Below, piece after piece: positions 14,119 through 31,770 of a DNA stretch of 38,923 nt. The translations under genes were made by a program, and so were the position numbers. The stretch comes from a virus (Duplodnaviria; Heunggongvirae; Uroviricota; Caudoviricetes). How positions within the stretch are numbered: the first letter of the stretch is position 1; each line of letters opens with the position of its first letter. The notes below the pieces were generated by a model. It searched no databases and was not told the DNA's origin. It saw nothing but the letters and a program-made list of their open reading frames with translations. The DNA lies in IMG/VR virus record IMGVR_UViG_2541047706_000009; one strand, 5' to 3'.

Positions 14119-16589
14119 CAGAATCCCCCAACAGTAAGGCGAGGAATAACGGCAAGAACAGACAGCGGCAACGGGTCAAGCTGACGGATTTTTACACGCC
14201 CGTTTTTGCCCCAGTTACTGTCCAGTTTCACTTCTACTTTTCCGGTAGCATCATCAACAGGATCATCGTAGAACTCGAATTCACGCTGTGGATATTCGTA
14301 CCATTTACCGCCGGGCGTAGTCGCCCAGATGCCGCGACTGGCATTCACAACCAGAGTAACGGACGGGATCACCTGTTTTTTGTCCAGCAGCGTTTCCTGT
14401 CCGTTAATGTTGATATCCAGTGTTTCGAATTCAGCAGTTATTGGCAGGCCGATGTGCACAACAGCCCCCGGTGATTCCAGCGTGACGGCACCTCCGGAAA
14501 CCACTTTTTGTGGTTCCACGTTCGCATCAGAGAGGATGTTTACGGTCTGGCCTTCAAGATGAGACAAGCCGCCAAATGTCCGGCGCGCCATCTGCCAGTT
14601 CGTGGTGGCCACATTCCTGAGGGATGGCGGGACGTTCCTGTTAGCACGAACCACTACTGCGGTATTGCTGGTTACAGAAATAATGTCGCAACGTAATTCT
14701 TTTGACACTTCATCGCCAGTATCAGGATCAGCTCCGGTATAAGGGAACTGTAGTTGCGCACCAACATCACTACTGGTGAAGTACGCACCACCAGAAACAC
14801 TGATTGTATATTCCGCGTGGTAATCCCATTCACCAGAACCACCAGTGATGGTCATCGTTCTGTCAGACGTATTTCTTCCATCATAGCTAAGGCCAGAATC
14901 AACAAAGAAAGCATCTTCATCGCTGGTAAATAAACGGCTGGACAGTCTCTCGATGTATCTCACTGTTTGCCCGTTAACGGTTCTGTTAACGACGAAATAC
15001 ACTGCATCTTCATTGCCTTCGCTGATACTGCATGTGCTTTCATATTTTCCGGTACTGGATTGTGGTGCCCATGCAAAAACCTGCTGATCACGCAAATAGG
15101 TCATCACCAGTAATTTACCGTCATCACGAATGCAGAAGGCACTGGAGTAAGGGACAATCGAGAAGCACCAGTCAACAATGCTGTGCTTCTGAAAAAGATG
15201 ATTGGCAAGGATAGTAAGGTCGTTCCCCTGATAGCCGTCAACATCGAATGAATAGGCCAGATCACGGACAACACTGCCTTTCTCCTGGACGAACAGAGCA
15301 ATATTCGCCACAGCAATTGGTGGGACGTTGCTTGAGCCATTTGATCCCTGAGAGCTGAATGCAAATGATGATGGGGTTAACACTTTGTTCTGGTCACCGG
15401 TGATGACGTACTCACCTCCGGAAGTCAGCGCCACCAGAGAACCAACATCAATCAGGTGACGGATCTCATTAACCTGACGCCCGGCATAGGTGTAGATAAT
15501 TCTGTCGTCATCCTGCGTAGGATTGCTTTTGCCAAAATCCTTATAATCCCCGGTACGGCTGGCCCAGATAGTCTGAGGGAACGCAGTCGATGCGGCGAAG
15601 TAAAGACGTTGTTGATAATAAACAACAGTGCCAGGATAACCATTAACACTGTTCCAGGCATATTTAGCCCATTTATAGCTGGCATTATCCTCGCCCACGA
15701 CCTGCGAAGGGATATAGGAAATCACCTCGGCAGTTGCAGTAGTTCCATTTGCAGCAGTGATACGGGCAATGCCAAAACCACTGTGCAGATATTCCCACTC
15801 AATGCCAGTATCATCATCACCGGATCCGCCCCAGCCATCCCATGATGTGCCTTCTGTATGCGAAGGGCGCAAAGTACCTGTTTTGCCTGCTGTAACGGCG
15901 CGATAGTAGTTACTGTCTGCACGGCGAATATCGCCAATCGACGTACTCTTACTGGTTTCCCATACCGGCACTGAATCCACTGCAGGCTGTTCCAGATAGA
16001 ACAATTTGCCTACCTGCTCCGCGCCAAAAATAGAGGCGCTTGCCGTTAACGTAATTGTCCCGGTGCTGGCGCTGGCATAAACCGTCACTGACTCGTCAAT
16101 ATTGATATCTTCAAATGGCCCGTTCTTCGTTACCACATCAACCAGTTGCCAGTTGTCATGAGCATATCGGCGCAACTCTTTCGGCGGGTATGCCGGGTGA
16201 ACCAGCGTAAGCACGTCGGCGCTTTGCGTGAATTTAATTCGGAACAGATCGGCTTCAGTATATGGCGTGGCAATTTCATAAATAACATTGCTGCTGTTCA
16301 GCACCAACGCACCATCTTTGATAACGCGCATGTACTGGTGTCCGAACTCCAGAGCATAGGTCTGAACCGTCGAGAACTGGAACGGGATCAGGCGGCATTT
16401 CCGATTTGGGTATTTGGCGGCACCGACAAAACGCGTACCAGGTCGATTCTCAACGCCGCCATACTGCCGCACGATAAAGTTATCGCACTTGCGCAATGCT
16501 ACCTGGTACTTCGCCATGTCAATACGCCCGTACAACGACGGTCCAATCTCACCACCGGCAAAGCTGGGCTGGATCCAACTGATAGCCAT
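14118..16589 (-). CDS. Tail tubular protein B-like (nozzle)
   Basis: 823 aa immediately after the gp11-like gene; size and position match T7 gp12-type nozzle proteins, with weak resemblance by eye. Confidence 0.5.
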   Translation of the reverse strand: MAISWIQPSFAGGEIGPSLYGRIDMAKYQVALRKCDNFIVRQYGGVENRPGTRFVGAAKYPNRKCRLIPFQFSTVQTYALEFGHQYMRVIKDGALVLNSSNVIYEIATPYTEADLFRIKFTQSADVLTLVHPAYPPKELRRYAHDNWQLVDVVTKNGPFEDINIDESVTVYASASTGTITLTASASIFGAEQVGKLFYLEQPAVDSVPVWETSKSTSIGDIRRADSNYYRAVTAGKTGTLRPSHTEGTSWDGWGGSGDDDTGIEWEYLHSGFGIARITAANGTTATAEVISYIPSQVVGEDNASYKWAKYAWNSVNGYPGTVVYYQQRLYFAASTAFPQTIWASRTGDYKDFGKSNPTQDDDRIIYTYAGRQVNEIRHLIDVGSLVALTSGGEYVITGDQNKVLTPSSFAFSSQGSNGSSNVPPIAVANIALFVQEKGSVVRDLAYSFDVDGYQGNDLTILANHLFQKHSIVDWCFSIVPYSSAFCIRDDGKLLVMTYLRDQQVFAWAPQSSTGKYESTCSISEGNEDAVYFVVNRTVNGQTVRYIERLSSRLFTSDEDAFFVDSGLSYDGRNTSDRTMTITGGSGEWDYHAEYTISVSGGAYFTSSDVGAQLQFPYTGADPDTGDEVSKELRCDIISVTSNTAVVVRANRNVPPSLRNVATTNWQMARRTFGGLSHLEGQTVNILSDANVEPQKVVSGGAVTLESPGAVVHIGLPITAEFETLDININGQETLLDKKQVIPSVTLVVNASRGIWATTPGGKWYEYPQREFEFYDDPVDDATGKVEVKLDSNWGKNGRVKIRQLDPLPLSVLAVIPRLTVGGF

Positions 16590-17913: not shown

Positions 17914-18351
17914 TTAACCAGTTACTTTTGAGCGGATCGGATACGGCGTATTGGCATCAACATCAAGACTGATACCAGCAGTGAATTCGCCAGCCGTTAG
18001 TGGGCCAGTTGCGACGGAGTAGTTAACACGCAGATATCGCTGAACACCGGCAGGCACCTTTGCAGAAACAACTCGTTTACCTGCTGTCAGGGCGGTCTTT
18101 GCCAGTGCACCACTATCATAAATAGTGGTCCATGAGCTGTTATTCTCACTCGTCTGCAACTGGATGTTTACAGTTGCCTCACCACTTGCCGTGGCGGCTT
18201 CGTTAACCAGCGCCCAAAACTCAAGCGGGTAACCCACGCCGATATCACGACGTTTTCCGTCAATTGGACCGAGATCGATTACGTCAGTAGAAGCCGCGGT
18301 ATTCGTAACCGCCTGAGCTTCGGAGAACATCAACAGTTTGTCGGTGATCAT
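17914..18351 (-). CDS. Possible capsid decoration/stabilising protein
   Basis: 145 aa, beta-rich composition, immediately downstream of the major capsid gene. Confidence 0.4.
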   Translation of the reverse strand: MITDKLLMFSEAQAVTNTAASTDVIDLGPIDGKRRDIGVGYPLEFWALVNEAATASGEATVNIQLQTSENNSSWTTIYDSGALAKTALTAGKRVVSAKVPAGVQRYLRVNYSVATGPLTAGEFTAGISLDVDANTPYPIRSKVTG

Positions 18352-18402
18352 CTTCTTTCTCCATTAGTGGGTCTGTTACGACCCACAGGTTAATAACAGG
18401 CG

Positions 18403-19395
18403 TTACACCACGCGGGCTTCTGTTTCCAGAAGCGCATCAGTTTCACGGATTGGTACACCACGGAATGAAGTCCACCACTCGCCTTCAGTCTCTTTTACGC
18501 TGATAGCCAGAGATGTTTTCTCCAGAGATTGCAGATCAAGAGCCTGGCCTACAGTGCGGTTCATGTAGAACACCGGGCGGCCCATTCCACGGTTTGGAAT
18601 GCGATGCAGTGCTTTAACCATCAACTTCGCAATATTTGCGGCAGAGGAAGGTTCTGAAAGATTGCTGACATCGATGTTTGCAATGCGAACAACATAACGC
18701 CAGTCACGCAGAGCAAGTCCGTTGTCCCATTTGTAATGGGTGCGATAGCCTTCGTACTTGCCGCCATTAGCATCTTCCAGTGTCACCTGGCCTTTATCTT
18801 CCATCTGGATGCCAGCCTTCTGCCCTTTCGGGAAGATGCCATGCACGGTGTTTTCGCCCCACACCACTAACCAGATTGAGGTGTTATCTGTACCCGTGCC
18901 ACCAGCATCAATGATGTTCTGAGCATTACCCGCAGACAGGCTGGAATAGCGGGAGGACAGTCCCATAAACTGCTGAGGGTTAACGCTGGAATCACCATAA
19001 AACAGCGTCTGCGCCATCTGCTGATTCATCGCTTCAATAAATGCGCGGTCTTCAGACAGGCGGAATTCAGCGGTATTGCCGTTCAGATCAGCCAGTGACT
19101 TATCGACTTCAGCATAGGTTTCCAGCATGCCAACGGAATCGGTTACCTGCACTGTGGTTGATTTGCTTGGCTGTACGCCATAGTTCAGCAAACGCCAGGT
19201 AGCTGAAGGTAAACCAGAACGAATGGTGGTTCGGTGTCCGGTAGGAAGGTTCCCTTCGACAAAAGGCATATCCTGAAGGATCGGGTTAGTTTGACCGAGA
19301 AGCTCGATAATCTTATCGACTTTCCCGTTTGGATCGACGCGCTTACCCCAGTCAGCCATCGTTAGCGCAGTTAAGCCTTTAACAGCCATTGTCAT
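18403..19395 (-). CDS. Major capsid protein
   Basis: About 330 aa, following the scaffold-like gene and preceding the decoration-like gene. RBS AGAGAGG fits the second ATG better (19389). Confidence 0.7.
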   Translation of the reverse strand: MTMAVKGLTALTMADWGKRVDPNGKVDKIIELLGQTNPILQDMPFVEGNLPTGHRTTIRSGLPSATWRLLNYGVQPSKSTTVQVTDSVGMLETYAEVDKSLADLNGNTAEFRLSEDRAFIEAMNQQMAQTLFYGDSSVNPQQFMGLSSRYSSLSAGNAQNIIDAGGTGTDNTSIWLVVWGENTVHGIFPKGQKAGIQMEDKGQVTLEDANGGKYEGYRTHYKWDNGLALRDWRYVVRIANIDVSNLSEPSSAANIAKLMVKALHRIPNRGMGRPVFYMNRTVGQALDLQSLEKTSLAISVKETEGEWWTSFRGVPIRETDALLETEARVV

Positions 19396-19403
19396 TTCCT
19401 CTC

Positions 19404-20105
19404 TTATTTGCCATAGAGCACTTCGGCCGCACTACGCTGGCCTTCATTACCACCGGTGACCATGCCATCTTCAGACATCGCCTTTCCGATTTTCACGAAC
19501 GTTTTGACCAGATCAGGGTGATTACCCAGCCCGGTGGTGTTCAGATATTCTTTGAGTTCAGGTGTCCCGAACTGGTCAAGCGCACGCTGTGCGGCGCTAA
19601 GGTTAGAAATCAACTTGTCGCCACCGATTTCTTTGTCAGCTTTTACATCCGCAGCCCACTGCTCGGTTGTTTTCTGCCAGGCTTCTGCCTGGCGCTGCTG
19701 AACACCTGCCAGAATCTTCGGATAAGCATCAACCAGCTTTTGCGCTTGCTCGTTGGTCAGGTTAAGTTCTCGCGCCACCGGCTCGAATTCATTCAACGCT
19801 TCTGTATCCAGCTCTACGCCTTCGGCAGCCTGAAACTCGTACTTCTCAGGCGCACCCTCTGGTTTATCGCCGTCCTTTTTTTCATCCTGCTTATCGTTTT
19901 CAGGCTTTTTGTCATCAGCAGGTTTATCGCCATCAGCAACAGGTTGTGGCTTATCACCTTCCTGTTGTGATGGATCACCAACTGGAGCAGGGTTATCACC
20001 TGCAGGCGCTGACGGTTCTGACGCAGCCGGAGCTGCTCCACCATCGACTGGTTGCTCATTGCAAAGACGGCGATACAGCAAACGCTCAAATAAATTCATG
20101 ATCAC
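19404..20105 (-). CDS. Scaffolding protein
   Basis: 233 aa, highly acidic, Pro/Asp/Lys-rich linker then helical C-terminus; lies between portal and capsid genes. Confidence 0.55.
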   Translation of the reverse strand: MIMNLFERLLYRRLCNEQPVDGGAAPAASEPSAPAGDNPAPVGDPSQQEGDKPQPVADGDKPADDKKPENDKQDEKKDGDKPEGAPEKYEFQAAEGVELDTEALNEFEPVARELNLTNEQAQKLVDAYPKILAGVQQRQAEAWQKTTEQWAADVKADKEIGGDKLISNLSAAQRALDQFGTPELKEYLNTTGLGNHPDLVKTFVKIGKAMSEDGMVTGGNEGQRSAAEVLYGK

Positions 20106-20398
20106 TCCTGTTCACTGGCCTCTTTGGCCATCTTCAAATACTGTTCAGGGCAATGCGCCATAACGCGCTGAAACAGTTCCAGCGCCAGATTGCGTTGCCC
20201 CTCATTAAATGCCATTGCCATAGCGTCCATCGGTGAGATGGCGGAAAACACACGGCCTTTCTCCAGCACCGACCAGACAACGCGACGCCCCTGTTCACTG
20301 CTCATGACAAAGCGAATGTCATCAATTTCACGCTGCGCCATGTCACGTTGCTTACGGGCGTTTTCTTCTTTCAGTTGATCGTCTTCGTAATCTGTCAT
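20102..20398 (-). CDS. Hypothetical protein
   Basis: 98-aa acidic ORF overlapping the portal stop and scaffold start. Confidence 0.4.
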   Translation of the reverse strand: MTDYEDDQLKEENARKQRDMAQREIDDIRFVMSSEQGRRVVWSVLEKGRVFSAISPMDAMAMAFNEGQRNLALELFQRVMAHCPEQYLKMAKEASEQE

Positions 20399-22074
20399 TG
20401 TGATTGCCCACCCTGACCACTAACTGCATTCGCCATAGCTGACAACACACTCGGATCCGAAGTTTTAGCTTCGCTTAGCGTCTTGGCCCCCTGTGCCGCC
20501 GCCATCCCCATCGCCATCATTTGTTGCTGCTGTTGTTGCTGTGCCCGTTGCTGGCGAGCCTGCTCAACCTGTTCCTGCGGAACAATGACGGTTGGAGACA
20601 CTCCGGACATATCAGCGAATGCATCGATCGCCTGATCAACGTTGAGTTTGTCGAGAGCTTCTGGTTTCGCTTGCGCAAGTTGACCAATGAAGTTGACCGT
20701 AGACGCCAGACTGGACAGGCCGATAGACTTCTGCGCCTGAGCCATGACGGAAATGTATTCGACCTTCAGGGGCATACCTTCCATCGCGTCAGGCGGTGGC
20801 GGCAGCATGTTTTTACGCACCATCATCGAGAAAGCGCGGTCAATGAGAGGATTAAGACATTCGTCGTTCAGACGCTCCAGAACCGGCCCCAACATCAGAA
20901 GTTTTTCTTCTTTCATTTCGATCACCGCTTCAACAGGCATCGAGCGGGTATTGATGTTCTGCAACATCATGAACAGATCGACAAAGTAGGCGCTGTTAAT
21001 AATTTGGCGAGTGTCCTGAATGTCTGCTACCAGATCTGCTGTACTGGGGTTAACCAGATAAGCAGGCCTGAAACCATCCTGACCAGTAATCTGATCGATA
21101 TACGTGATGTCGCCAGGAAGAAGGGAGGCGCGCTGATTCTTGAGGGAAGTCGGAGCAACCATCGGCGGATTGGTGGCTTTATCAATCAACTGCGACTTGC
21201 GCTTCTGGAGAAGCTGCAATGCCTTAACAGGTCCAAGCGCCAGCATACCCGGGCATGATGATCCATAAACATCTTCGCCGTTAACTTCCCAGCGCGGAGC
21301 CATAATTGGAAACTCATCGAATCCGGACTCACGCAACAACTTGTCGTTATCGCCACCAACCTCGTAATAAACCGATTTGAATGGCTTGTTCTTGCTATCC
21401 AGCTTCGATGTATCGCGGTCAATGTTCGGGTAAACCGAATGCATCACTTCAATCCACTTCTCGTAGGTGCCGCTTTCCCACATGCTTTTTACGGATTCGC
21501 TGACGTTATTTAGCCCGAACTCCTGAACAAGCTGACGAACAGTCATAGAGAACTTGCGAAAACAGGTGTCCACACTGCCACGAGGTGAGTTAGCCAGGTA
21601 GTAACTGCCTATCGGGAATGGCATTGTGCGAATGATGTCCTCGTCATCCTCCAGCACTGCCATTGCACCAGTGCTGTATGTGCCGAGGCTTCCGTATAAC
21701 TGCGGCAGAGACTGATAGAGATTCGACTTATTGAACATATCGTTCATGCGGTTCTGCACCGCCTCAAGCCACAACTTAACAGGGCCATAATCCATCATTT
21801 CAGGATCTGGCGTAGCCAGGCGAAACCACGGACGCGCGGGGCTTGTGATGCCTGACATCATGCCGCTGGCGAGAGTGCGCGCCGCCATAGTCCCGGTCGA
21901 ATCAATAATGCGTGTATTGCGTCGATCGTTACGGTTGACCTCAGAAGTCAGAAAGCGGGAACCACGCGGGTTGATGTAATCACTCAACTCGCGCCAGTGC
22001 GGCTCGAACGACTGACGCTCGCTTTCAAGTTGTGCGAACTGTTTGTTCAATCGCTCTTTAGTTGTTTCCGCCAT
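20395..22074 (-). CDS. Portal protein
   Basis: 559 aa, first large ORF after the terminase region, followed by scaffold and capsid genes; GGAG RBS. Confidence 0.7.
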   Translation of the reverse strand: MAETTKERLNKQFAQLESERQSFEPHWRELSDYINPRGSRFLTSEVNRNDRRNTRIIDSTGTMAARTLASGMMSGITSPARPWFRLATPDPEMMDYGPVKLWLEAVQNRMNDMFNKSNLYQSLPQLYGSLGTYSTGAMAVLEDDEDIIRTMPFPIGSYYLANSPRGSVDTCFRKFSMTVRQLVQEFGLNNVSESVKSMWESGTYEKWIEVMHSVYPNIDRDTSKLDSKNKPFKSVYYEVGGDNDKLLRESGFDEFPIMAPRWEVNGEDVYGSSCPGMLALGPVKALQLLQKRKSQLIDKATNPPMVAPTSLKNQRASLLPGDITYIDQITGQDGFRPAYLVNPSTADLVADIQDTRQIINSAYFVDLFMMLQNINTRSMPVEAVIEMKEEKLLMLGPVLERLNDECLNPLIDRAFSMMVRKNMLPPPPDAMEGMPLKVEYISVMAQAQKSIGLSSLASTVNFIGQLAQAKPEALDKLNVDQAIDAFADMSGVSPTVIVPQEQVEQARQQRAQQQQQQQMMAMGMAAAQGAKTLSEAKTSDPSVLSAMANAVSGQGGQSQ

Positions 22075-22088
22075 TTCAATGACTCCGG

Positions 22089-22295
22089 TTACTGACCAAG
22101 TAGCGTTTTACCGCTGGTATTAGCGGTTGATGTGTCGCCCTGAGAACCGGTAAGCAGCGTAGAACTACGACCAGCAGCAGCGCGACGGCGACGAGTTTCT
22201 TCGTCGCGGGCATCAACAACGGCGGCATCCTGCTCCTGTGGTGCTGCCTGAACTTCTGGTGTTGCAGGCACTGATGGTGAGCTACCCATGCACAT
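22089..22295 (-). CDS. Small acidic/Arg-rich protein
   Basis: 68-aa ORF with GGAG RBS directly upstream of portal; the overlapping 22076-22315 frame is judged less likely. Confidence 0.3.
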   Translation of the reverse strand: MCMGSSPSVPATPEVQAAPQEQDAAVVDARDEETRRRRAAAGRSSTLLTGSQGDTSTANTSGKTLLGQ

Positions 22296-22363
22296 ATCAA
22301 TGACTCCGTACGCAATTAAATTATTACCAATTTAACCACATATGATTTATTTATCGTAGGAGG

Positions 22364-22401
22364 TTGACATTTAACGCACGAATTATTACCTTTCAGGTAA
22401 C
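22364..22401 (+). promoter_or_regulatory. Promoter-like TTGACA with operator-like palindrome ATTACC-tttca-GGTAAC
   Basis: TTGACA at 22364-22369; palindrome at 22385-22401 overlaps the -10 position. Faces the noncoding region and tRNA. Confidence 0.4.
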
Positions 22402-22419
22402 CAAAAAGTTCATTCCGGT

Positions 22420-22720
22420 TACTAACCTGACTGGCTTGTCGTTAAATTGAACAGGTGGAGTGAGCTTTTATTTTGAGCAGTACGGCGTATGGCACATGCG
22501 CCGATAGCGGTCTGGGTACGTTTAAGGGGCACCCTCCCTTGCTCGGGCAAACGAACCAGGTAGCCGGAATGTGCAAGTCGAGCGGTTTTATTCCGCGCAC
22601 GGGGATTCACCATCCCGGCGATTCGGTGTGACGCCTCGGAAGAGACGAGGTACAACGATGAGAGCATTTATGGATCCGCGACAAAGTGTGGCGCCTTAAC
22701 AGGCTAAGTGCTCTCAGCGT
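22420..22720 (+). ncRNA. Possible structured noncoding RNA
   Basis: About 300 bp with no credible ORF on either strand but several local hairpins, between a promoter-like element and the tRNA. Confidence 0.2.
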
Positions 22721-22721
22721 T

Positions 22722-22798
22722 GTGGCATTAGCTCAGTTGGACAGAGCAACCGCCTTCTAAGCGGTTGGTCGCAGGTTCGAATCCTGCATGCCACGCCA
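22722..22798 (+). tRNA. tRNA-Arg (anticodon UCU), phage-encoded
   Basis: Cloverleaf readable by eye: acceptor GTGGCAT/ATGCCAC, D-arm GCTCAGTTGGACAGAGC, anticodon stem ACCGC/GCGGT with loop CTTCTAA, T-arm GCAGGTTCGAATCCTGC, discriminator G and encoded CCA. Confidence 0.85.
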
Positions 22799-22852
22799 GA
22801 ATCACGCCTAAGGACCGTGATGCCAGAAGTTCCAAGTGCTTGGCGGTGATGG

Positions 22853-22884
22853 TTTCCCTTGAAGGACTATCACCGCCCTTTTTA
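22853..22884 (+). terminator. Hairpin with T-tract downstream of the tRNA
   Basis: ggcggtgat...atcaccgcc stem followed by ctttttac. Confidence 0.4.
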
Positions 22885-22960
22885 CAGCAGGACGCCATTG
22901 CGATGACTTCATGCTGTAAACCCGTACAGCCACGGAAGGCAGAACTCATTGCTTCCAGTT

Positions 22961-22987
22961 CGCCCGGTTCGCCGGGCATTTTTTTGC
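22961..22987 (+). terminator. Rho-independent terminator
   Basis: cgcccgg-ttcg-ccgggc GC-rich hairpin followed by TTTTTTT. Confidence 0.65.
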
Positions 22988-23000
22988 TTGATGACCGCAA

Positions 23001-23017
23001 ATTACCTTAAAGGTATA
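23001..23017. promoter_or_regulatory. Operator-like palindrome ATTACC-ttaaa-GGTATA overlapping a TATAAT element
   Basis: Half-site ATTACC plus imperfect right half; ggTATAATc lies 4 nt before the moron ATG at 23021. Confidence 0.4.
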
Positions 23018-23020
23018 ATC

Positions 23021-23839
23021 ATGAAAAACTTCAAGGTAATTAGCATGTTTGAATCGTTCAAAGAGCTGTTTTTATCTACTGCCAATACTGCCGTGAATCG
23101 AGCCAAAAACCCTGTGCTTGGTGCTTTTGTTATGTCCTGGTGCGCCTTCAACTGGAAATCAATTCTTTATCTATTTTTTAGCAAATCAAACATAATAGAT
23201 AAAATTTCATATATCTCAGATAACAGCACATGGAAAACTGTTATGTTTTATCCATGCTTATCTGTAATTGCTATCTGCTGCCTATTACCATGGGTAAACA
23301 ATATCATTAACGTATGGCAAGCAAAGCCTCTTGATAATAATGACTCAATCGAAAATCACCTGAAGGCAAGAAAAATCCAGCGTGAAACAAGGCTGCAGAG
23401 GTTATTGGCTAAAAAAGATGTTACATACGACAAAGTTAAGACTGGCGCGGAAAAAGACATCCAAGAGATGAAAGAAGAGATTATTCGTTCAAAGAATAGT
23501 ATGGGGGAATTGACTGCCGAGTTGAAAGCTAAAGATGACGAATTGAGATCCGCCAGTGCTCAGTTAGCAGCTCTAAATCATTCATTAAAAGAGATATCGG
23601 AAACTCTTGGAAGAATGAATGAGGCATATAAGACCCTCCAAAATGATTTCGACGAATACAAACTCAAATACCCTGAAAAATCTCAAATAAAAAGCCTTGC
23701 ACTTGGCAACGGCCAAACAATTAGCAACTTTTTGGAGCAACACAACTTATCCGGATTAAAATCTGGTAAGCCAAACGTTTTTAATAACTTTGGTGTTCTA
23801 TCTGGATTATCAGGTTTCGAGGATAAAAATAAAGACTAA
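23021..23839 (+). CDS. AT-rich moron: membrane-anchored coiled-coil protein
   Basis: 273 aa from ATG 23021 (ORF-track start 22949 trimmed; 22991 also possible). Two N-terminal TM segments then a K/E-rich coiled coil. Visibly lower GC than flanking genes and opposite in strand to the late operon. Confidence 0.6.
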   Translation: MKNFKVISMFESFKELFLSTANTAVNRAKNPVLGAFVMSWCAFNWKSILYLFFSKSNIIDKISYISDNSTWKTVMFYPCLSVIAICCLLPWVNNIINVWQAKPLDNNDSIENHLKARKIQRETRLQRLLAKKDVTYDKVKTGAEKDIQEMKEEIIRSKNSMGELTAELKAKDDELRSASAQLAALNHSLKEISETLGRMNEAYKTLQNDFDEYKLKYPEKSQIKSLALGNGQTISNFLEQHNLSGLKSGKPNVFNNFGVLSGLSGFEDKNKD

Positions 23840-25311
23840 GCATATGGATCGTACTCGGTAAGCGCCTTGCCTTGCTGGTTCTGCTGCCCGGGAAGTCGCA
23901 GGCGCTTTGACACCGGGAAAGCAAACGTCAGCAGTAGCGCATCGCCTTTACCAGGCGAACGCCCAAGTCGTTCTTTGATATCTTCCTTCGGTTCGATAAC
24001 GATTTTACCGTCCACGCGAACTTTGTACTCTGCCGCCGACAGATCGTCCGCTGTTTCCTGGTCATCCAGCATCCCGCCCAACCTCAGCCATGTCTTGCAT
24101 GAGTTGAACATCTCCCCACGCTTGTTAAGCATCTGCGGGTCAGTGGACGCACCGCCGAACGGAACAAGTTGCCATGTACGTCCCCAGCCATCACCGATTG
24201 ACTTCAGACCAGTTCCGTAACCGAAGTCGATGAACACTGCGTCAGCCTGGTACTGGTCTTCAAAGTCAGCGATACGCTTCGCCATAATCAGATCGTCGGT
24301 GGTCTTGTTACCAGTCCATAGCACCTTACTGTGCAGCCCCTGCCGCAGGTATATCACAGCGTCATCAACGCCGGAGTATGCCGGGTCAACGCCGATTATC
24401 ACCGGAGCATGTGCAACCTGCGCAGCGGTTACCACCCGTTTCATTGCCTCGTCAGTAAGGCCGGTAGGGATAAACTGCAATTCAGATGCATCCGGGAATA
24501 TGCCGCGCACACGGATTTTAACGAAGTCGCTGTCTTCCCCGTAGTCATCAACCCATTTCTGCAACTGCTGTTTGTTAGTGCCTTCCACCGTCCGGCTGTC
24601 AATCTGCGCAGTTTTCCAGCGGTGTTTATATTTGCGGAAACATTCGCGGAAACGCCCGGTGTTACGTGTAGGGTTTCCGAATGCCACCCAGATAATCTCA
24701 GTGTCTTCGTCCGTCAGCGCACCCTCTGCTACCTCCCACACCAGATCGGCAATGTTGGATGCTTCGTCGAATACCACGATGATGCGTTTGCGCTCGTTGT
24801 GTAGTCCGGCGAATGCCTCAGTGTTGTGCTCAGACCAGGGGATTGCGTCAGCTCGCCACCGCTTGTCGTGCCCAGGGTCATTGCTGTACATCGCGGTAGC
24901 GGTACAGGTAAACCAGTCTTTCGTGATAGCAAGGTTCGACCACTTGATAATTTCCGGCCAGGTCTTCGTTCGTAGCTGGTTGTCGGTGTTGGCGGTCACC
25001 ACGACCTTACAATCCTCGCAAGTGGACATGCCCCAGTTGATCAGCATTGAGATGAATGCGGATTTACCAATACCGTGACCAGAAGCACGTGCCAGCATAA
25101 GCGGCTGATATCGCGTCTCTGGATTCTGCAGGTGATCACGTATCTCTCGGAACGCATCGGCCTGCCACTGACGTGGACCGGTGGCATGTGCCAGTTCAGT
25201 ACCCTCTTCCCCCCACGGGAACGCATAGAGGGCATAGCCAAGCGGATCGTGAGTGAACCCTGCAATATCCTCGATTAACTGCTCTTCAGGAGATAACGCT
25301 GTATCTGTCAC
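23836..25311 (-). CDS. Terminase large subunit
   Basis: 491 aa; Walker-A-like ASGHGIGKS near the N-terminus and acidic nuclease-like C-terminal half; start overlaps the small-subunit stop. Confidence 0.8.
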   Translation of the reverse strand: MTDTALSPEEQLIEDIAGFTHDPLGYALYAFPWGEEGTELAHATGPRQWQADAFREIRDHLQNPETRYQPLMLARASGHGIGKSAFISMLINWGMSTCEDCKVVVTANTDNQLRTKTWPEIIKWSNLAITKDWFTCTATAMYSNDPGHDKRWRADAIPWSEHNTEAFAGLHNERKRIIVVFDEASNIADLVWEVAEGALTDEDTEIIWVAFGNPTRNTGRFRECFRKYKHRWKTAQIDSRTVEGTNKQQLQKWVDDYGEDSDFVKIRVRGIFPDASELQFIPTGLTDEAMKRVVTAAQVAHAPVIIGVDPAYSGVDDAVIYLRQGLHSKVLWTGNKTTDDLIMAKRIADFEDQYQADAVFIDFGYGTGLKSIGDGWGRTWQLVPFGGASTDPQMLNKRGEMFNSCKTWLRLGGMLDDQETADDLSAAEYKVRVDGKIVIEPKEDIKERLGRSPGKGDALLLTFAFPVSKRLRLPGQQNQQGKALTEYDPYA

Positions 25312-25904
25312 TGATTGCCATCCTGACGTTCTTTCAGTCTCTTCCTGGCTGCCGCTATGCGATCAGCAATTGTCACATTCACATTAACATCCAGGCGTTC
25401 TTTGAATGCGTTGACGTCGACGTGCTTACCAATCAGTTCGAGGTTCTTCACCTTGTCAGGCCATTTAATTTTTTTGAGGATTGTCTCTATCGAATCCTCG
25501 TTCATGTTCATGATGGTCGATGACAGATCAAAGCCACTAAGCGTAGTGCGCCAGATTTTCGGCCACTCACGGATTGGTTTAAGGCTCCCATCGTCGTTGA
25601 GGATATCGATCACGTCCATCTGGTCGATCTCCACCAGGCGCATGAGAACGTAATCAGCACTGACGCGCATTCGTTTGTTGCGCTCCTCCATCAACTCGGC
25701 AATCCGTTTTTGAATGCGTTCATCGCGCATCATGACACTGGCTTTAACTGCCGCTGTATTTGGGGAGAATCCTGCGTTAATCGCTGCCTGAGTCTGGTTT
25801 TCAGGCGTTTTGATGTATGACTGGCAATAAGCCTCCTGCATTGCTGTTAGTGGCTTAAATTGCGTTGATTTGCGTTTATAGGTTTTAGGTTCAGCAGGCA
25901 TCAT
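25308..25904 (-). CDS. Terminase small subunit
   Basis: About 198 aa from ATGATG at 25904 with GGTGG RBS (ORF-track start 25982 trimmed because a terminator lies inside the extension). Confidence 0.6.
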   Translation of the reverse strand: MMPAEPKTYKRKSTQFKPLTAMQEAYCQSYIKTPENQTQAAINAGFSPNTAAVKASVMMRDERIQKRIAELMEERNKRMRVSADYVLMRLVEIDQMDVIDILNDDGSLKPIREWPKIWRTTLSGFDLSSTIMNMNEDSIETILKKIKWPDKVKNLELIGKHVDVNAFKERLDVNVNVTIADRIAAARKRLKERQDGNQ

Positions 25905-25911
25905 AACCACC

Positions 25912-25943
25912 GTGGTAATAGTTACCGTTGTGGTAATAGTACC
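25912..25943. repeat. Tandem repeat GTGGTAATAGT(T)ACC x2 in the terminase leader
   Basis: Two adjacent copies separated by gtt; each holds GGTAAT and TACC half-site-like elements. Confidence 0.4.
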
Positions 25944-25946
25944 ATG

Positions 25947-25974
25947 CAAAATAAAGCCGCCATAGTTGGCGGCA
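25947..25974 (-). terminator. Rho-independent terminator upstream of the late operon
   Basis: gccgcc-aactat-ggcggc hairpin followed on the minus strand by tttatttt; about 45 nt upstream of the terminase small-subunit start. Confidence 0.6.
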
Positions 25975-26014
25975 GTATTCAAAACACATCAAATTCATCA
26001 TGCATAATCTACTC

Positions 26015-26026
26015 GTGACATGTCAC
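26015..26026. repeat. Perfect 12-bp palindrome GTGACATGTCAC (copy 2)
   Basis: Identical to the copy at 5817-5828; lies at the stop of the zinc-finger gene, about 40 nt upstream of the late-operon terminator. Confidence 0.6.
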
Positions 26027-26364
26027 ACTATTAATTTCGTTTCATGCCAGCCTTTAGTCACCCAGCATTGCGAGTCACCATTGCACGGGCATGAATTAAC
26101 TGGAACTCTCTCGCCGCACTTACCGCAACGTTTTCTGCTGATCGATTTTATACGCCCGCGCACCCGGGCATCATCCTGGCGGATCAGCAGCGCGATGTAC
26201 TCGGCCATTTCATAGGGATCTCGACCAGGGCGCCGGGCGGCGCAGTTACGCTCCAGCATTTCAATTTCCTGAGCATCAAGCACAATCTCCAGCTTACGCA
26301 CACCAGATGCAGCTTGTCTGGCTCTCTGAGCGGCTTTGCGCTCTGCTGCTGATTTAGCCATCAA
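26023..26364 (-). CDS. Small zinc-finger protein, candidate late-gene regulator
   Basis: 113 aa, basic N-terminus, C-terminal CxxC..CxC cluster (RKRCGKCGERVPVNSCPCNGDSQC); last gene before the late operon. Confidence 0.4.
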   Translation of the reverse strand: MMAKSAAERKAAQRARQAASGVRKLEIVLDAQEIEMLERNCAARRPGRDPYEMAEYIALLIRQDDARVRGRIKSISRKRCGKCGERVPVNSCPCNGDSQCWVTKGWHETKLIV

Positions 26365-26635
26365 TATTTACCTTTATCGCGTATACCTTTACCGGTTTAT
26401 CGCCGAAGTGGGGATGTGTGATTGTCTTGATTTCATATCCGTCATACGGGACGTCAATTCTACGACTGGAGTCGTCGCGCTTCGGATATCCCTTTGTGAT
26501 AATCAGTCGGTCATAATCCCTGAACATAATTCGCTTATTCCAGTAGTCATTACACAGGCGATACTCTTCCGTTTTCTCTCCGCGAATGATGGCATCGAAG
26601 TATTCACCTTTAACGGCTAGTTGCAGGTTAGCCAC
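26354..26635 (-). CDS. ASCH-domain protein
   Basis: About 93 aa from GTG with AGGAGG RBS; has the GxKxxExR signature (GEKTEEYR) of ASCH domains. Confidence 0.5.
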   Translation of the reverse strand: MANLQLAVKGEYFDAIIRGEKTEEYRLCNDYWNKRIMFRDYDRLIITKGYPKRDDSSRRIDVPYDGYEIKTITHPHFGDKPVKVYAIKVNIDG

Positions 26636-27203
26636 GATTAACCTCCTGCTTCGGTGCTGCTGGCATTTCACGCCAGTGCGTAACTGAGTGCGGATCCGGA
26701 TATTCGGTGCCATCATCCCAGCGATTACCATTCCACATTGCAGACCACATCTCACCGTCTTCATACATGACCATTACCGGAATTAACTTATCCGGCATTC
26801 GCTCACTACAGCTTATCCAACCATCCGGAGTTCCCGGAGTTGGTCCATCGAATTCGGGCATGTCAGGACCTTTTCTGATAGCTTTAGCCAGCTCCAGCGG
26901 GTCATCGTAAAGCCAGTCGCCAGTTTGTGGGTGATTTGCTTCTGCCAGTTGCGCCGCCCATTCAAGGCCGTCTTTGTGACCTTGCAGATAGCCCAGCGGC
27001 AACTCATCACGATTACTTACATGTTCGGCACCCCGAAGCATGGCGGCGCGGAGTTTCTGTATCTCCCGTGCCATTATTGCGTCCTGACGAGGAGTGAACA
27101 TATCACCTGCAATAATTCTGTTTAGTTCCTCGTCAGTGAACTCATAATCATCAGGAACATTGTGAACCTCAGCATAAAGAGGCTTTTTGGTAGAAATGGT
27201 CAT
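26628..27203 (-). CDS. DUF551-like phage protein
   Basis: 191 aa; C-terminal region DGWISCSERMPD..VTHWREMPAAP matches the DUF551 pattern (GWISV..RLP...THWMPLP). Confidence 0.5.
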   Translation of the reverse strand: MTISTKKPLYAEVHNVPDDYEFTDEELNRIIAGDMFTPRQDAIMAREIQKLRAAMLRGAEHVSNRDELPLGYLQGHKDGLEWAAQLAEANHPQTGDWLYDDPLELAKAIRKGPDMPEFDGPTPGTPDGWISCSERMPDKLIPVMVMYEDGEMWSAMWNGNRWDDGTEYPDPHSVTHWREMPAAPKQEVNRG

Positions 27204-27904
27204 CGTAAAACACCCTCCGCACTTACCAGTCCGTTTCGCAAAAGATAATCCATCGCCCTATCTGGTAATTTGCAATCAGGTTTTGCTTTTTTCAGTTGGC
27301 TGACCAATTGTTTAACCAGCACTGTTAATTCGATAACCTGGTAGCGCGGCAATGGTGAATTATCGGATTTGCCCTGACTTTCTGCGCTGCATGAATGCCC
27401 TTCCAGCCATGCCAATGCTTGTCGCATGAAATACGCAATATGTTTGCCGTGGTAATCGTCTTCATCGATGTGAAAAGCGATACTGCGGATGTATTCTATT
27501 GCGTTTTCAATAGCCTCCGGCCTTATCGGCGCTGACATATTTTGATTTTGGAGTGCCAAGACGCGGCTGGCATCCTCAACATCTTTAACTGCATCTGCGC
27601 AGTAGTTATAGCGATTGCACTCCACTAACTTCTGCTTGAGATTTTCAATTGCTTGCGCGACATCAGCCTGCAATTCCCGAACTGGCGGAGTGGCATATAA
27701 CGGCACCCACTTTGGTGCTTTATCCCCGACCGAACGCTGATACCAGTCACCCGGTTTGTATTCATAAAACTCACCAACAGGCTCTGCTTCCAGCAAGGCT
27801 AACGCTATTTCATAAGCTCGGCGCTCAATATTGTCTCGCACGTCCAGGCTGCCGATGCGCTCTTTGATTTCTTTAATCAGTTCTTTGTCGGTGAAAGTGG
27901 TCAT
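27200..27904 (-). CDS. Hypothetical nin-region protein
   Basis: About 234 aa from ATG 27904 with AAGGAG RBS (ORF-track extension to 27985 trimmed). Confidence 0.45.
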   Translation of the reverse strand: MTTFTDKELIKEIKERIGSLDVRDNIERRAYEIALALLEAEPVGEFYEYKPGDWYQRSVGDKAPKWVPLYATPPVRELQADVAQAIENLKQKLVECNRYNYCADAVKDVEDASRVLALQNQNMSAPIRPEAIENAIEYIRSIAFHIDEDDYHGKHIAYFMRQALAWLEGHSCSAESQGKSDNSPLPRYQVIELTVLVKQLVSQLKKAKPDCKLPDRAMDYLLRNGLVSAEGVLR

Positions 27905-27905
27905 A

Positions 27906-28466
27906 TCACTCTCCTTTGATGCGAATGCCAGCGGCGCGTGGCACATTAACTTCCACGATGCGCACTGTTGGTTTGTACATCTCAATCGCTGTCAGCCAGT
28001 CAGCTCCTGTCATGCGCTTTTCCGCATCGCCATTAGTCCACTGAACCGGTACACCAATAGCCTTCATCGCGATTTCTATTTCCCCGGCAATGGCGCTTTT
28101 TCCGCAACCAGTAAAACCAGAAACAACGACAAGAACTTCACCTTTGGCTGGTTTTATTTCCCGTGCTTCCAGTTCTGCAATGCGCTTTTTGTCTGCTTCC
28201 CGTTCATCCAGTAGTGCCAGCACGGTAGCTGGACTGGCTGCGGCGATGAATTCAGCATTGGCCTGCTGTTCCATTTGGAAATCTTCATCGAAACCGCTTT
28301 CAGGATGCGCTCCTTCAATTCTGCAAATGGGAATATATCCAGCAGCCTCGCGATGAATTAGTGCATCATCACCATCAAATCGGCCCTCTCCATATTCGAG
28401 CGACCACACACCACACGTTGCTTTCTCTGCCTTTTCACGCAGTGCCTGATAGTCAATTTCGCTCAC
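27906..28466 (-). CDS. Ead/Ea22-like protein
   Basis: 186 aa; N-terminal MSEIDYQALREKAEKAT and internal ..ATVLALLDEREADKKRIAELEARE.. resemble the Ead/Ea22 family of lambdoid prophages (from memory). Confidence 0.45.
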   Translation of the reverse strand: MSEIDYQALREKAEKATCGVWSLEYGEGRFDGDDALIHREAAGYIPICRIEGAHPESGFDEDFQMEQQANAEFIAAASPATVLALLDEREADKKRIAELEAREIKPAKGEVLVVVSGFTGCGKSAIAGEIEIAMKAIGVPVQWTNGDAEKRMTGADWLTAIEMYKPTVRIVEVNVPRAAGIRIKGE

Positions 28467-28948
28467 TGTTTGCCCTCCTTCATAAAAATAATCCAGTGGG
28501 TCTTGTCACCTTTTCCTGTTCGTTGACCGATAACAGGCTTTCTGTCGGTCAGTGCCAATATCTGGCGAACAGGTATTTGCGTTTCATTCCATTTAAAAAT
28601 CAGAACGCCGGATGGACGCAACACACGAAAGGCTTCTTTAAATCCCTGCCGCAAATCATCACGCCAGGTATCTTTATTCAGTCGTCCATATTTCTTTCCC
28701 ATCCAGGCGTTATCACCAACACGCTCAAGATGCGGAGGGTCGAATACAACCATCGAAAAGGATGCGTCTGCAAATGGTAGTGCACGAAAATCAGCTATCA
28801 GGTCAGGACTGATAATCAGGCGTCGTCCATCACATAATGTGTGCTCTTCCTTTCTGATATCGCTAAATATCGCCCGGTCGTCATTCTTATCGAACCAGAA
28901 CATGCGACTGCCACAGCACATGTCGAGGATTGCTGCATTTCCAGTCAC
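28463..28948 (-). CDS. DNA methyltransferase (amino-methyltransferase type)
   Basis: About 161 aa from GTG with AAGGAGG RBS; SAM-binding-like block ILDMCCGSRMFWF and catalytic DPPH tetrapeptide (VVFDPPHL). Start overlaps the upstream stop (GTGA). Confidence 0.55.
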   Translation of the reverse strand: MTGNAAILDMCCGSRMFWFDKNDDRAIFSDIRKEEHTLCDGRRLIISPDLIADFRALPFADASFSMVVFDPPHLERVGDNAWMGKKYGRLNKDTWRDDLRQGFKEAFRVLRPSGVLIFKWNETQIPVRQILALTDRKPVIGQRTGKGDKTHWIIFMKEGKQ

Positions 28949-29610
28949 TGGCTGCCTCCTTTGCGAATCTGTTCCGCCCATTCTTCAAGGGATTTTTCCG
29001 CATATTCACCGGACAGGCCATCAATCGGATGCGGTTCATTAGCCAACTCTTCTTTCGCTGACAAAATCATGCGTGTAACGTCGAAAACTTCACGCAAAGA
29101 CTTATTGATAAATCCGTGATTGAACGCAGCAGCAAGACGGCTGGCGGTATAGTTAATCCCCTCGTTGCGTGCTTCCGCACGAATTTCAGACAGGAAAGCA
29201 TCGGTGGCCGGGGTTTCAACACGGATGCTGTCGCGCAAGATGAAAAATGCATTGAGCATTCCAGTCTCTGGCGCTTCATCCTGATGCTTCTCATACGCAT
29301 CAAGAGCCTTCATCATCTCAGGTCCGAATGGTTGAGGTTGCACATACTTCAGCCCCGCATTCTCCACTGCCAGCGCCGAAAACTTATCGTGTGCCAACTT
29401 AACAGCTGCATCAGCCTGCTTAATTGACTCAATCGCTTTCTGTTGGTCTTCGGCCAGCGCATTAGCACGCACCAGTTGCACTTCCAGTTGCGTTGCCAAA
29501 TCGCTGATCAGCTTTGCCACACTACGCATATCAACGGCACCACATTCTGCTTTCAGTTCCGAAGCCATCTCATGCCCGGCGGCAACTAACCCTTTGATAT
29601 TACTTTCCAT
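28945..29610 (-). CDS. Hypothetical protein coupled to the methyltransferase
   Basis: 221-aa helical/acidic ORF whose stop overlaps the methyltransferase start. Confidence 0.4.
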   Translation of the reverse strand: MESNIKGLVAAGHEMASELKAECGAVDMRSVAKLISDLATQLEVQLVRANALAEDQQKAIESIKQADAAVKLAHDKFSALAVENAGLKYVQPQPFGPEMMKALDAYEKHQDEAPETGMLNAFFILRDSIRVETPATDAFLSEIRAEARNEGINYTASRLAAAFNHGFINKSLREVFDVTRMILSAKEELANEPHPIDGLSGEYAEKSLEEWAEQIRKGGSQ

Positions 29611-29671
29611 CTTTACCCTCGCTTATCCACATAACTTATTGATTACATTGATAACTAAAAAGATCGTCGAT

Positions 29672-30016
29672 TCAGAACTTTTCGATGTTCCAGCCACCAC
29701 CTGCTTTCTTTGGTTTAACCGTTACCCCGATGATTCGGAACGGATACTGATCTGCGGCGACTTTGGTTTTCACCCTGGCGTCGTCGGTCCAGAAACCTTT
29801 CACTTCGTGCAGTTCCATCTCGCCGGTGGCGAGCATCACAGCAAAATCGGGCGTATAGAACGTGTTGTCAGCTAACCGCAGCTTGATACCCTCAAATCGA
29901 TACCAGACGATTTCTCCTGCACGTTTACGCAGCTCAAGGTGCTGGCAATACGCAGATTCTGTTTTGTTCATCTGACCTGTTTTGAGTCGACCAAGAGCCT
30001 GTATCTGTTTTCTCAT
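29672..30016 (-). CDS. DUF1064-family protein
   Basis: 114 aa; pattern KTE..Y...LEL.K.AGEI..........L.L......Y.PDF.V......E.HEVKG..T matches DUF1064 phage proteins. Confidence 0.5.
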   Translation of the reverse strand: MRKQIQALGRLKTGQMNKTESAYCQHLELRKRAGEIVWYRFEGIKLRLADNTFYTPDFAVMLATGEMELHEVKGFWTDDARVKTKVAADQYPFRIIGVTVKPKKAGGGWNIEKF

Positions 30017-30018
30017 GA

Positions 30019-30035
30019 TTTACCTCTGAGGTAAT
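30019..30035. promoter_or_regulatory. Operator-like palindrome TTTACC-tctga-GGTAAT
   Basis: Lies 3 nt upstream of the DUF1064 start codon and includes its RBS. Confidence 0.5.
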
Positions 30036-30080
30036 TAAAAACCACATAAGACACGAAATCAATAGATTTTAGAATATTTT

Positions 30081-30097
30081 ATTACCTAACAGGTAAT
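30081..30097. promoter_or_regulatory. Operator-like palindrome ATTACC-taaca-GGTAAT
   Basis: Perfect site between the P-like gene stop and the DUF1064 gene. Confidence 0.5.
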
Positions 30098-31755: not shown

Positions 31756-31770
31756 GATTAATCTCCGCTA

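Follow-up and report, generated by a model that had tools for sequence, protein, structure and literature searches.

A conserved structured RNA of enterobacterial temperate phages, found upstream of a tRNA-Arg(UCU)

Structured RNAs of temperate phages include GOLLD and ROOL, ornate prophage RNAs reportedly described by Weinberg and colleagues in 2009 and 2017 and said often to have tRNAs adjacent to or nested within them. The put RNAs are about 70 nt long and consist of two stem-loops (PMC9378689). For LLS, a phage related to lambdoid phages discussed below, no N homologue is reported, and its authors, who leave the mechanism in LLS-like phages open, guess at a put-like RNA (PMC12315714). Here we analysed IMG/VR record IMGVR_UViG_2541047706_000009, a 38,923-nt stretch of a Caudoviricetes virus (hereafter the window), in which an earlier reading of the letters (the original prediction) had pointed to a tRNA-Arg(UCU) and about 300 bp of noncoding sequence before it, at 22364-22798. 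The main object of this locus is not the tRNA but a conserved RNA of about 170 nt that precedes it, which we call the core. A covariance model of the core (R1) scored at most 3.4 bits with filters off on the HK022 region with nun, cI and cro (27500-32500) and found nothing in 19000-29000, and we rejected the core as a put homologue.

The core RNA and its covarying fold

BLAST aligned about 165 nt of the window (22482-22644), at 80-82% identity, with an unannotated stretch of phages P1 and P7. We gathered homologues with an 18-mer, the last 18 nt of the block GGUAGCCGGAAUGUGCAAG, wrote a structure by hand onto a structure-blind MAFFT alignment of 73 non-redundant homologues and scored six helices: P1, P2, P2b, P5, the pseudoknot between the P5 loop and GGUG, and P6. 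The elements of the core, in window coordinates, are as follows.

22483..22650, + strand: core structured RNA, about 170 nt; the covariance-model match spans 22469-22676
22437..22482, + strand: 5' leader with a degenerate punctuation motif (GUCGUUAAAU ... GGAGUGAGCUUUUAUUUUGAG), from comparison with relatives
22483..22503, + strand: hairpin P1, CGGCGUAU-GGCAC-AUGCGCCG, with the invariant AUGGCACAUG; covaries and is present in the minimum free-energy fold
22511..22560, + strand: helix P2 (22511-22515 with 22556-22560), closing a variable arm; covaries
Inside P2, + strand: variable arm with P2b (22519-22523/22549-22553), which covaries, and hairpins at 22524-22540 and 22541-22548
22559..22577, + strand: block of 18-19 nt, GGUAGCCGGAAUGUGCAAG, identical in 73 of 73 aligned homologues, in part by construction, the 18-mer being the search pattern
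22582..22596, + strand: variable hairpin P4, GCGG-UUUUAUU-CCGC; every homologue has a hairpin here, of differing sequence and length
22602..22628, + strand: hairpin P5 (22602-22605/22613-22616); the CACC of its loop (22608-22611) forms an H-type pseudoknot with GGUG (22625-22628)
22634..22650, + strand: hairpin P6, CCUCG-GAAGAGA-CGAGG, with a conserved GGAAGAG loop; covaries

Across the 73 homologues, standard pairs filled 93.1% of the scored cells, against 82.6% in shuffled alignments, and 213 cells had changed on both sides, against 60.2 ± 11.3 in the shuffles; not one of 500 shuffles reached the observed pairing, double-change count or covariation score. When the 3' partners were slid as a control, 31-47% of cells paired, and the covariation score, 0.316 as observed, was at most 0.081. 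Double changes occurred in 16 of the 29 pairs. Within P1, 36 sequences have G-C and 35 have A-U at pair 19/31, and pair 17/33 takes the forms G-U, G-C, A-U and C-G; within P2, pair 45/99 is split between C-G (53 sequences) and U-A (20), and pair 46/98 between G-C (69) and A-U (3). Three of the four P5 pairs changed on both sides, as did four of the five in P6, whose stem occurs as CCUCG/CGAGG, GCCGG/CCGGC, CCUGG/CCAGG and CCCGG/CCGGG. In the pseudoknot, 65 sequences have CACC/GGUG and 8 have AACC/GGUU, and 99.3% of its cells are paired. The core is a structured non-coding RNA whose helices are kept by compensatory substitutions, and its frequent G-U pairs place it on the + strand, the same as the tRNA.

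The hairpins vary in sequence while keeping their pairing, and between them stand the invariant blocks AUGGCACAUG, UAGCGGUC, GGUAGCCGGAAUGUGCAAG, GGCGAU.CGGUGUGAC and GGAAGAG. The P2 arm differs in length between phage groups; P4 stayed outside the covariation scoring, the alignment being out of register there. RNAalifold proposed a long-range pairing of AUGUGC in the 18-19-nt block with GCACAU in the P1 loop, which we rejected as the main pairing: it competes with P1, which has real covariation, whereas its own two sides never vary. We therefore retained the local hairpin and kept GCACAU/AUGUGC as a possible pseudoknot or switch. In relatives, a motif of the form GUCGUUAAAU...GGAGUGCGCUUCCAGGUGUG stands at the position of the 5' leader and again between the downstream cassettes.

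R1, built from the alignment, found one copy in the window (22469-22676, 162.9 bits, E 4e-46) and one in each of the related loci, numbered L001 onwards here, at 130-193 bits. The exception is L030, with two tandem cores about 800 nt apart (4779-4971 and 3972-4166, both on the − strand); the second, recovered by the model alone at 130 bits, replaces the otherwise invariant GGUAGCCGG with GGAAGCUGG and, in the 5' junction, GGUC with GGCC. Four genome matches to the 18-mer (L139, L143, L149 and L159) were discarded as chance matches.

An Rfam 15 scan of the whole window at gathering thresholds returned the tRNA alone, a permissive scan of 22000-23100 (E < 10) gave no match on 22400-22720, and a gathering scan of 17 related loci gave tRNAs, C4, isrK and int-alpA, all outside the core. 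The short open reading frames (ORFs) of the region, 42-81 aa, have no Pfam match. Homologous cores range from 142 to 174 nt and spread over all three residues modulo three (29, 25 and 19 sequences), so there is no conserved reading frame; with indels that are not multiples of three, we rejected a protein-coding core. Several records annotate hypothetical proteins on or across the core, on either strand, among them L004 2443-2811 (mEp460_037), L006 2601-2762 (Tyrion gp54), L008 2638-2889, L012 2652-2903 and L005 2323-2613; these calls are probably spurious. The searchable literature, whose coverage is incomplete, held no description of the RNA by its invariant sequence or by topic, and papers on the Pas small RNAs, on lambda PreS/LPR1 and on the P1vir/hfq transcriptome do not describe it. 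The family is absent from Rfam 15, whose models cover among others GOLLD, ROOL, C4, isrK, 6S, Y RNA-like RNAs, riboswitches and ribozymes, and, as far as we found, appears to be new to the searchable literature.

The original prediction had remarked on several hairpins in a region without a credible ORF, and had offered a processed leader, a degenerate tRNA or a small RNA as what they might be. The hairpins are real, being conserved with compensatory changes, and the coding explanation that it named as a possible refutation is not borne out by the core lengths. A degenerate tRNA is rejected: ARAGORN and Rfam find a single tRNA, no tRNA model matches within the core, and its fold is not a cloverleaf. 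Processed leader or small RNA was the right general category, which nevertheless missed that the RNA is independent, widely conserved and at most loci without a tRNA.

Distribution, placement and modular surroundings

The core occurs in 88 phage records, in 591 plasmids (mostly P1-like), in at least 120 IMG/VR contigs and at 23 genuine loci of GTDB species genomes. Nearly all of these last are titled Enterobacteriaceae (Escherichia, Citrobacter, Klebsiella, Enterobacter, Kosakonia, Kluyvera, Phytobacter, Buttiauxella, Erwinia and others); one short contig titled as a Bacillota metagenome-assembled genome was taken as mis-binned.

Three unrelated phage types carry the core, in each of them after repressor-controlled promoters. 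Among Uetakeviruses (the window, phiV10, SPN1S, Tyrion, BUCT554, 65FD and BUCT711), it lies between a 68-aa ORF on the portal side and the terminase, opposite the late genes, with variable cargo following on the same strand. In P1, P7, D6, SJ46 and RCS47, the C1-controlled ban operon contains it, downstream of tciABC and trnI and some 100 nt ahead of ban; the P1 copy (L001, AF234173 70698-70875) is unannotated and starts 14 bp after tRNA-Ile(CAT). Lambdoid carriers include mEp460, cdtI, 2H10, Ayreon, 1720a-02, Stx2a_1447/WGPS2, twelve Stx2c phages, an Stx2k phage and many IMG/VR contigs.

In all eight lambdoid immunity types tested, the core lies 143-470 nt downstream of a same-strand CI-type repressor gene, which is the nearest same-strand ORF upstream of it. 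In Stx2a_1447 (L003), the cI stop codon is followed by a terminator, by two copies of the OR-type operator motif with a promoter, TTGCAT-17-TATCTT, and, about 40 nt later, by the core; a tRNA-like domain and a terminator come next, and another long hairpin, with a T-run, precedes the first early-left ORF. Other lambdoid members have TTGACC-17-GATACT (with the -10 of lambda PL) or TTGACA-18-TACATT. These promoter-like hexamers, 7-70 nt before hairpin P1, were read by eye. In these lambdoid phages, the core is thus the first element that PL transcribes. In mEp460, a Q-type late regulator and about 14 early-left-strand genes beyond the RNA are annotated; N is absent from the annotation, and the first PL ORF has no Pfam match. 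Terminators stand between the core and the same-strand protein genes both in the window and in lambdoid members. On the PR side of L003, by the antirepressor gene, 208-396 (− strand) matches C4 antisense RNA and isrK RNA (Rfam, 83.6 and 67 bits), so this phage group uses at least two kinds of regulatory RNA.

Downstream, the core is joined to further RNA-like modules, the nearest of which is a long helix.

22652..22723, + strand: stem A, a helix of 18-20 bp (22652-22671 with 22704-22723) enclosing a variable insert, from RNAfold

The 3' strand of stem A (...UGCUCUCAGCGUUGU) extends into the first bases of the tRNA. Of 34 distinct variants, RNAfold closed 31 with at least nine pairs, in most cases 17-18, and compensatory changes occur among them; the motif TGC[TG]CTYN..GTTGTG follows the core at 53 of 65 non-redundant loci. 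We counted tRNA neighbours from −400 to +900 nt around the core at 157 loci: 107 had none, 29 had tRNA-Arg(UCU) at a fixed downstream offset, 19 (P1-like) had tRNA-Ile2 just upstream, and two had a tRNA-like Ile(AAT) further downstream. With 107 loci lacking one, the tRNA is an exchangeable cassette and not the reason for the core RNA.

The slot after the junction GUUGUGG holds the tRNA-Arg in the window and, elsewhere, a tRNA with a long insert or the tRNA-like Ile(AAT). Its commonest occupant elsewhere is a domain closed by GUGGUG/CACCAC, with two hairpins and complementary loops GGCUGAU and AUCAGC, a layout that resembles the L-shape of a tRNA. This tRNA-like cassette (L003 2797-2930, L006, L007, L008, L012 and others, after GTTGTGG) reads GUGGUGAAU-GCGCA GGCUGA UGCGC ... 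GCCGG AGAUCAGCA CCGGC-CACCACAAC, with an acceptor-like closing helix, covarying hairpin stems and complementary loops (GCUGAU/AUCAGC); it matches no Rfam 15 family. A further conserved RNA-like cassette, GCCCAGACGAUAUCUGAGUGGCUUAAAAAACAGAUGGGAGCCGGUGGAAUCCCGGC, varies in its place within the arrays; it is found in L007 (about 2690-2760), in L017 (about 9060-9130) and downstream of the core in L039, and takes the place of P6 in L017-type phages. In 65FD and L039, the core is followed by a 'type B' module (UCAGCCAUUCAC..GGUGCUUAGCGGGACUGGAAGAGUUACCACUUGGAGACGGUCC).

Part of the sequence after the core resembles the boxA of rRNA operons. In L092, a perfect rrn-type boxA, TGCTCTTTAACAA, stands directly after the core, 128 nt past the 18-mer anchor (3235) and with a hairpin before it; about 7e-4 perfect 13-mers would be expected by chance at that position. 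L049 has a near-match, AGCTCTTTAAAAA, at +121. In the L092 and L049 phages, a membrane-protein gene on the opposite strand is inserted between the leader and the early-left genes. The full boxA consensus follows the core at two to three loci, and a boxA-like UGCUCU... motif at the 53 of 65 loci above. In the window, the boxA-like UGCUCUCA fits the first 6-8 nt of the consensus and is base-paired in stem A. The short motif is not enriched on one strand, because the stems are self-complementary, and we recognised no boxB-like hairpin with a GNRA pentaloop.

The unit in the window and its tRNA-Arg

An E. coli prophage of the epsilon15/phiV10 type (Uetakevirus) makes up the window. Over the region examined here, four complete E. 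coli genomes are 100% identical to it; identity is about 98% for phiV10, TL-2011b and O157 typing phages 9 and 10. The unit around the core runs in the order promoter, leader, core, stem A, tRNA-Arg(UCU), conserved hairpin and intrinsic terminator, and has the following further features and neighbours.

22364..22369, + strand: -35 hexamer TTGACA of the RNA/tRNA unit, read from the sequence
22387-22392, + strand: -10 hexamer TACCTT, 17 bp after TTGACA
22386..22400, no strand assigned: operator-like palindrome TTACCTTTCAGGTAA, overlapping the -10 TACCTT
22722..22798, + strand: tRNA-Arg, anticodon UCU, CCA encoded; called by ARAGORN and RF00005 and annotated in relatives
22801..22821, + strand: conserved 3' hairpin AUCACG-CCUAAGGAC-CGUGAU, found after the tRNA or the cassette replacing it in most relatives
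22842..22883, + strand: intrinsic terminator 1, a 14-bp stem GGCGGUGAUGG...CUAUCACCGCC followed by CUUUUU, from a terminator scan
22962..22985, + strand: intrinsic terminator 2, GCCCGG-UUCG-CCGGGC followed by AUUUUUUU, from a terminator scan
22991-23019, + strand: next same-strand promoter, ATGACC-17-TATAAT, from a scan; overlapped by the operator copy at 23002-23016
23021-23839, + strand: cargo ORF of 272 aa, with a hydrophobic N-terminus and a coiled coil
20395-22074, − strand: portal gene, one flank of the tRNA-Arg
23836-25311, − strand: large terminase gene, the other flank; the annotation of relatives agrees

The -10 hexamer is weak, fitting the consensus at three of six positions, for which reason a consensus scanner missed the promoter; the arrangement TTGACA-N17-TACCTT recurs in SPN1S-type relatives. 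With up to one mismatch allowed, the window contains 13 TTACC-N5-GGTAA sites where 0.58 would be expected, a count that not one of 100 shuffles attained. The copies start at 5163, 5445, 22386, 23002, 25904, 25922, 30020, 30082, 32052, 32389, 32437, 33149 and 33211; they precede most transcription units, including the tailspike and terminase operons, and flank both sides of a repressor-like HTH_3 ORF (32507-33091). This pattern looks like a dispersed-operator layout and recalls the C1 control of P1, from which we infer that the unit should be off in a lysogen and fire on induction.

In relatives, too, the unit ends in a conserved terminator 1. The 272-aa cargo ORF has no Pfam family above cut-off, and because the cargo genes of relatives at this position are unrelated (DUF551, the N4 gp49/Sf6 gp66 family and others), the interval between portal and terminase looks like a moron hotspot. 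We are highly confident that 22364-22885 forms one operator-controlled unit opposite the late genes, that its core belongs to an enterobacterial temperate-phage family without an Rfam 15 entry, and that the tRNA is an optional part of it.

ARAGORN found one tRNA in the 38.9-kb window, tRNA-Arg(tct), to which RF00005, the Rfam tRNA model, gives 73.3 bits (E 2.4e-14; gathering score 29). Arginine identity elements are A20, C35, U36/G36 and A/G73; on reading the sequence, we find a D-loop ...GGAC with A20, C35, the anticodon UCU and the discriminator G73, and CCA is encoded at 22796-22798, so identity elements and 3' end appear complete. The tRNA itself is already annotated in phiV10-, SPN1S- and TL-2011b-type phages and is an ordinary phage-borne tRNA-Arg(UCU), reading a codon that the host uses rarely. 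In 45 non-overlapping ORFs of the window, AGA makes up 6.65 and AGG 4.95 per 1000 codons, and AGA is 10.8% of arginine codons. E. coli genome averages are about 2 for AGA and 1.5 for AGG per 1000, so that AGA use in the phage is roughly three times the host average. AGA and AGG codons cluster in the tail and tailspike genes (3178-16589, up to eight AGA per gene), and AGA is absent from the portal, capsid-region ORFs and large terminase (within 17914-25311). Usage and clustering support codon supplementation by the tRNA, which is plausible on these counts.

For this part of the locus, the original prediction holds up well. It had described a well-formed tRNA-Arg(UCU) on the + strand between portal and terminase, and a tRNA scanner and covariance search locate it at 22722-22798; its TTGACA element is present, its operator-like palindrome is backed by the excess of such palindromes in the window, and its suggestion that the tRNA compensates for host codon bias agrees with the raised AGA use.

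Possible functions and relation to known systems

We propose that the core is a cis-acting early-leader RNA that would let RNA polymerase pass downstream terminators, a reading, drawn from sequence and placement, to which we give a probability of roughly 0.4. The phage repressor, bound at the palindrome, would silence the unit in a lysogen, and the unit would fire early on infection or induction. Cleavage by RNase P at the 5' end of the tRNA would set the 3' end of the leader RNA, the tRNA-like cassette would provide the same punctuation in other phages, the long stem A would be a likely RNase III site, as in rRNA operons, and the tRNA-Arg would supply AGA decoding. Taken jointly, repressor control, processing by RNase P and RNase III, and AGA decoding are probable. 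The nascent core would fold and act on the very polymerase that made it, perhaps joined by host Nus factors recruited through boxA-like sequences; the modified polymerase would then ignore terminators and reach the early-left genes, ban or the cargo ORF. The core would thus do the job of nutL plus N in lambda, or of put RNA in HK022. We favour this reading because the core sits between PL and terminators in phages apparently without N, because the P1 core is directly 5' of ban in a C1-controlled operon, and because two terminators and then a same-strand cargo ORF follow it in the window.

Several observations weigh against such a cis-acting leader. For the cargo ORF of the window, an operator-controlled promoter of its own makes any need for read-through less than obvious, and beyond that ORF the + strand is antisense to the terminase gene. 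A terminator comes directly after the core in L036, L092 and L049, and terminators are weakly enriched downstream of the core (31 of 62 loci, against 19 of 62 upstream, by a simple counter that misses imperfect stems). The likeness of stem A to boxA and boxC, judged against consensus sequences, cannot be told apart statistically from the self-complementarity of the stem. In L092-type phages, where a canonical boxA is also present, the core might add to a Nus-dependent system instead of replacing it. The core is also not homologous to put, given the score of R1 on the HK022 immunity region.

The main rival, nearly as likely and in our judgement tenable, is a trans-acting stable RNA that, freed from the early transcript by RNase P, RNase III or RNase E, would accumulate and bind a conserved host machine or defence protein: RNA polymerase (in the manner of 6S), Rho, RNase E, the ribosome, a tRNA-directed nuclease or another immune effector. 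The early-promoter position would then just ensure the earliest expression. This would fit an 18-nt single-stranded block and loops that are identical across phages of Escherichia, Salmonella, Klebsiella, Enterobacter, Kosakonia and others (the homologues having been collected with the 18-mer), as well as the Uetakevirus unit, which resembles a self-contained gene with its promoter, RNAs and two terminators. Some loci consist of promoter, core and terminator alone, no protein gene conservedly accompanies the core, and the linked tRNAs, tRNA-like cassettes and long stems resemble processing signals. A trans-acting RNA leaves unexplained, however, why the core is placed precisely between PL and the terminators in many lambdoid immunity types apparently lacking N. 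The tRNA neighbours in the window and in P1, and the 3' stem abutting the 5' end of the tRNA, could also suit a mere tRNA precursor leader, mRNA 5' stabiliser or processing scaffold without a function of its own. We consider this unlikely, since sequence invariance and pseudoknot covariation far exceed what a passive element needs, the core is kept across unrelated phage types and positions, and 107 of the 157 loci have no tRNA within the interval counted.

A riboswitch-like aptamer setting early read-through or ban translation is slightly less likely still. Its aptamer-like features (the pseudoknot, invariant junction nucleotides and variable peripheral hairpins) and a 5' leader position before terminators, or before the ban ribosome-binding site in P1, stand against the fact that we saw no alternative pairing of the 3' part of the core with the terminators; the downstream 'expression platforms' would be very heterogeneous and often 100-400 nt away, beyond tRNA or other cassettes, and no metabolic gene is linked. 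Least probable is that the element works not as an RNA but as DNA (an operator cluster, a pac site, an origin or a recombination site) or as a small protein gene. Hypothetical proteins such as mEp460_037 and Tyrion gp54 are annotated over the core, and the conserved boundaries ACAAC/GTTGTGG could be recombination linkers between cassettes; compensatory changes, however, keep helices whose G-U pairs lie on one strand only, the orientation to promoters and tRNAs is always the same, and neither the indels nor the ORFs, which have no Pfam match, behave as coding sequence.

Whatever its function, the RNA lies in a region matched by 756 of 5426 complete E. coli genomes (about 14%), where annotations are blank or give spurious hypothetical proteins. 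It would add an RNA of about 170 nt, supported by covariation, to the unannotated trnI-ban stretch of the much-studied P1, would offer a new pseudoknotted fold for studies of interaction with the transcription machinery, and recasts a phage tRNA-Arg as a cassette in a non-coding transcription unit instead of a stand-alone gene. If a cis-acting leader is the right reading, it would explain how the terminators after PL are passed in lambdoid phages apparently without N, including converters for Shiga toxin and cytolethal distending toxin. More tentatively, the core could stand beside put and EAR as a third, hitherto unrecognised class of processive antiterminator based on RNA, perhaps one that cooperates with Nus factors, or be a cassette in RNA arrays organised like rRNA operons. 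Were the former true, this antiterminator class would drive the early-left operon in such phages (including Stx2a, Stx2c and Stx2k converting phages and cdtI), and P1 would use it for ban; in a broader view, phages with the core would bear 'RNA operons' of core, tRNA-like domains and real tRNAs, split by long processing stems and boxA-like motifs.

Among described systems, the core shares several traits with C4 of P1, CI of P4 and isrK: these too are phage RNAs from the leader of a repressor-related operon, matured by tRNA enzymes (as we infer for the core). It fails the C4 and isrK models, however, and is about twice as long. Like GOLLD and ROOL, it is a structured phage RNA with a tRNA association and modular organisation; unlike them, it is much smaller, has no match to their Rfam models, belongs to Enterobacteriaceae and not to Firmicutes and others, and takes an early-promoter position. 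Its tRNA-Arg(UCU) differs from the usual phage one in being an exchangeable cassette within a conserved non-coding unit. The lambdoid core occupies the position of lambda nutL, although N is unannotated in mEp460 and none is reported in LLS (PMC12315714), and no boxB was recognised. The boxB-boxA-boxC leaders of rrn operons may be echoed in the perfect boxA of L092 and in the UGCUCU...GUUGUG of most loci, a resemblance without statistical support, and the long putative processing stems and embedded tRNAs around the core are reminiscent of rRNA operons.

The comparison with HK022 putL and putR bears most directly on the proposed cis action. Both are cis-encoded structured RNAs with conserved unpaired nucleotides, found just after a repressor-controlled early promoter of a lambdoid phage apparently without N and before terminators and early genes: the L003 core lies 40 nt past OL/PL and is followed by terminators, and the window has an operator-overlapped promoter and two terminators. 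In contrast to put, the core is about 170 nt long and folds into five or six helices plus a pseudoknot, is single, with no PR-side partner within the fetched loci, and is also found in P1-like and Uetakevirus genomes, with tRNA or tRNA-like cassettes after it. Put suppresses termination in cis through the β' zinc-binding domain of RNA polymerase, with no phage protein involved, and the core may work in a similar way.

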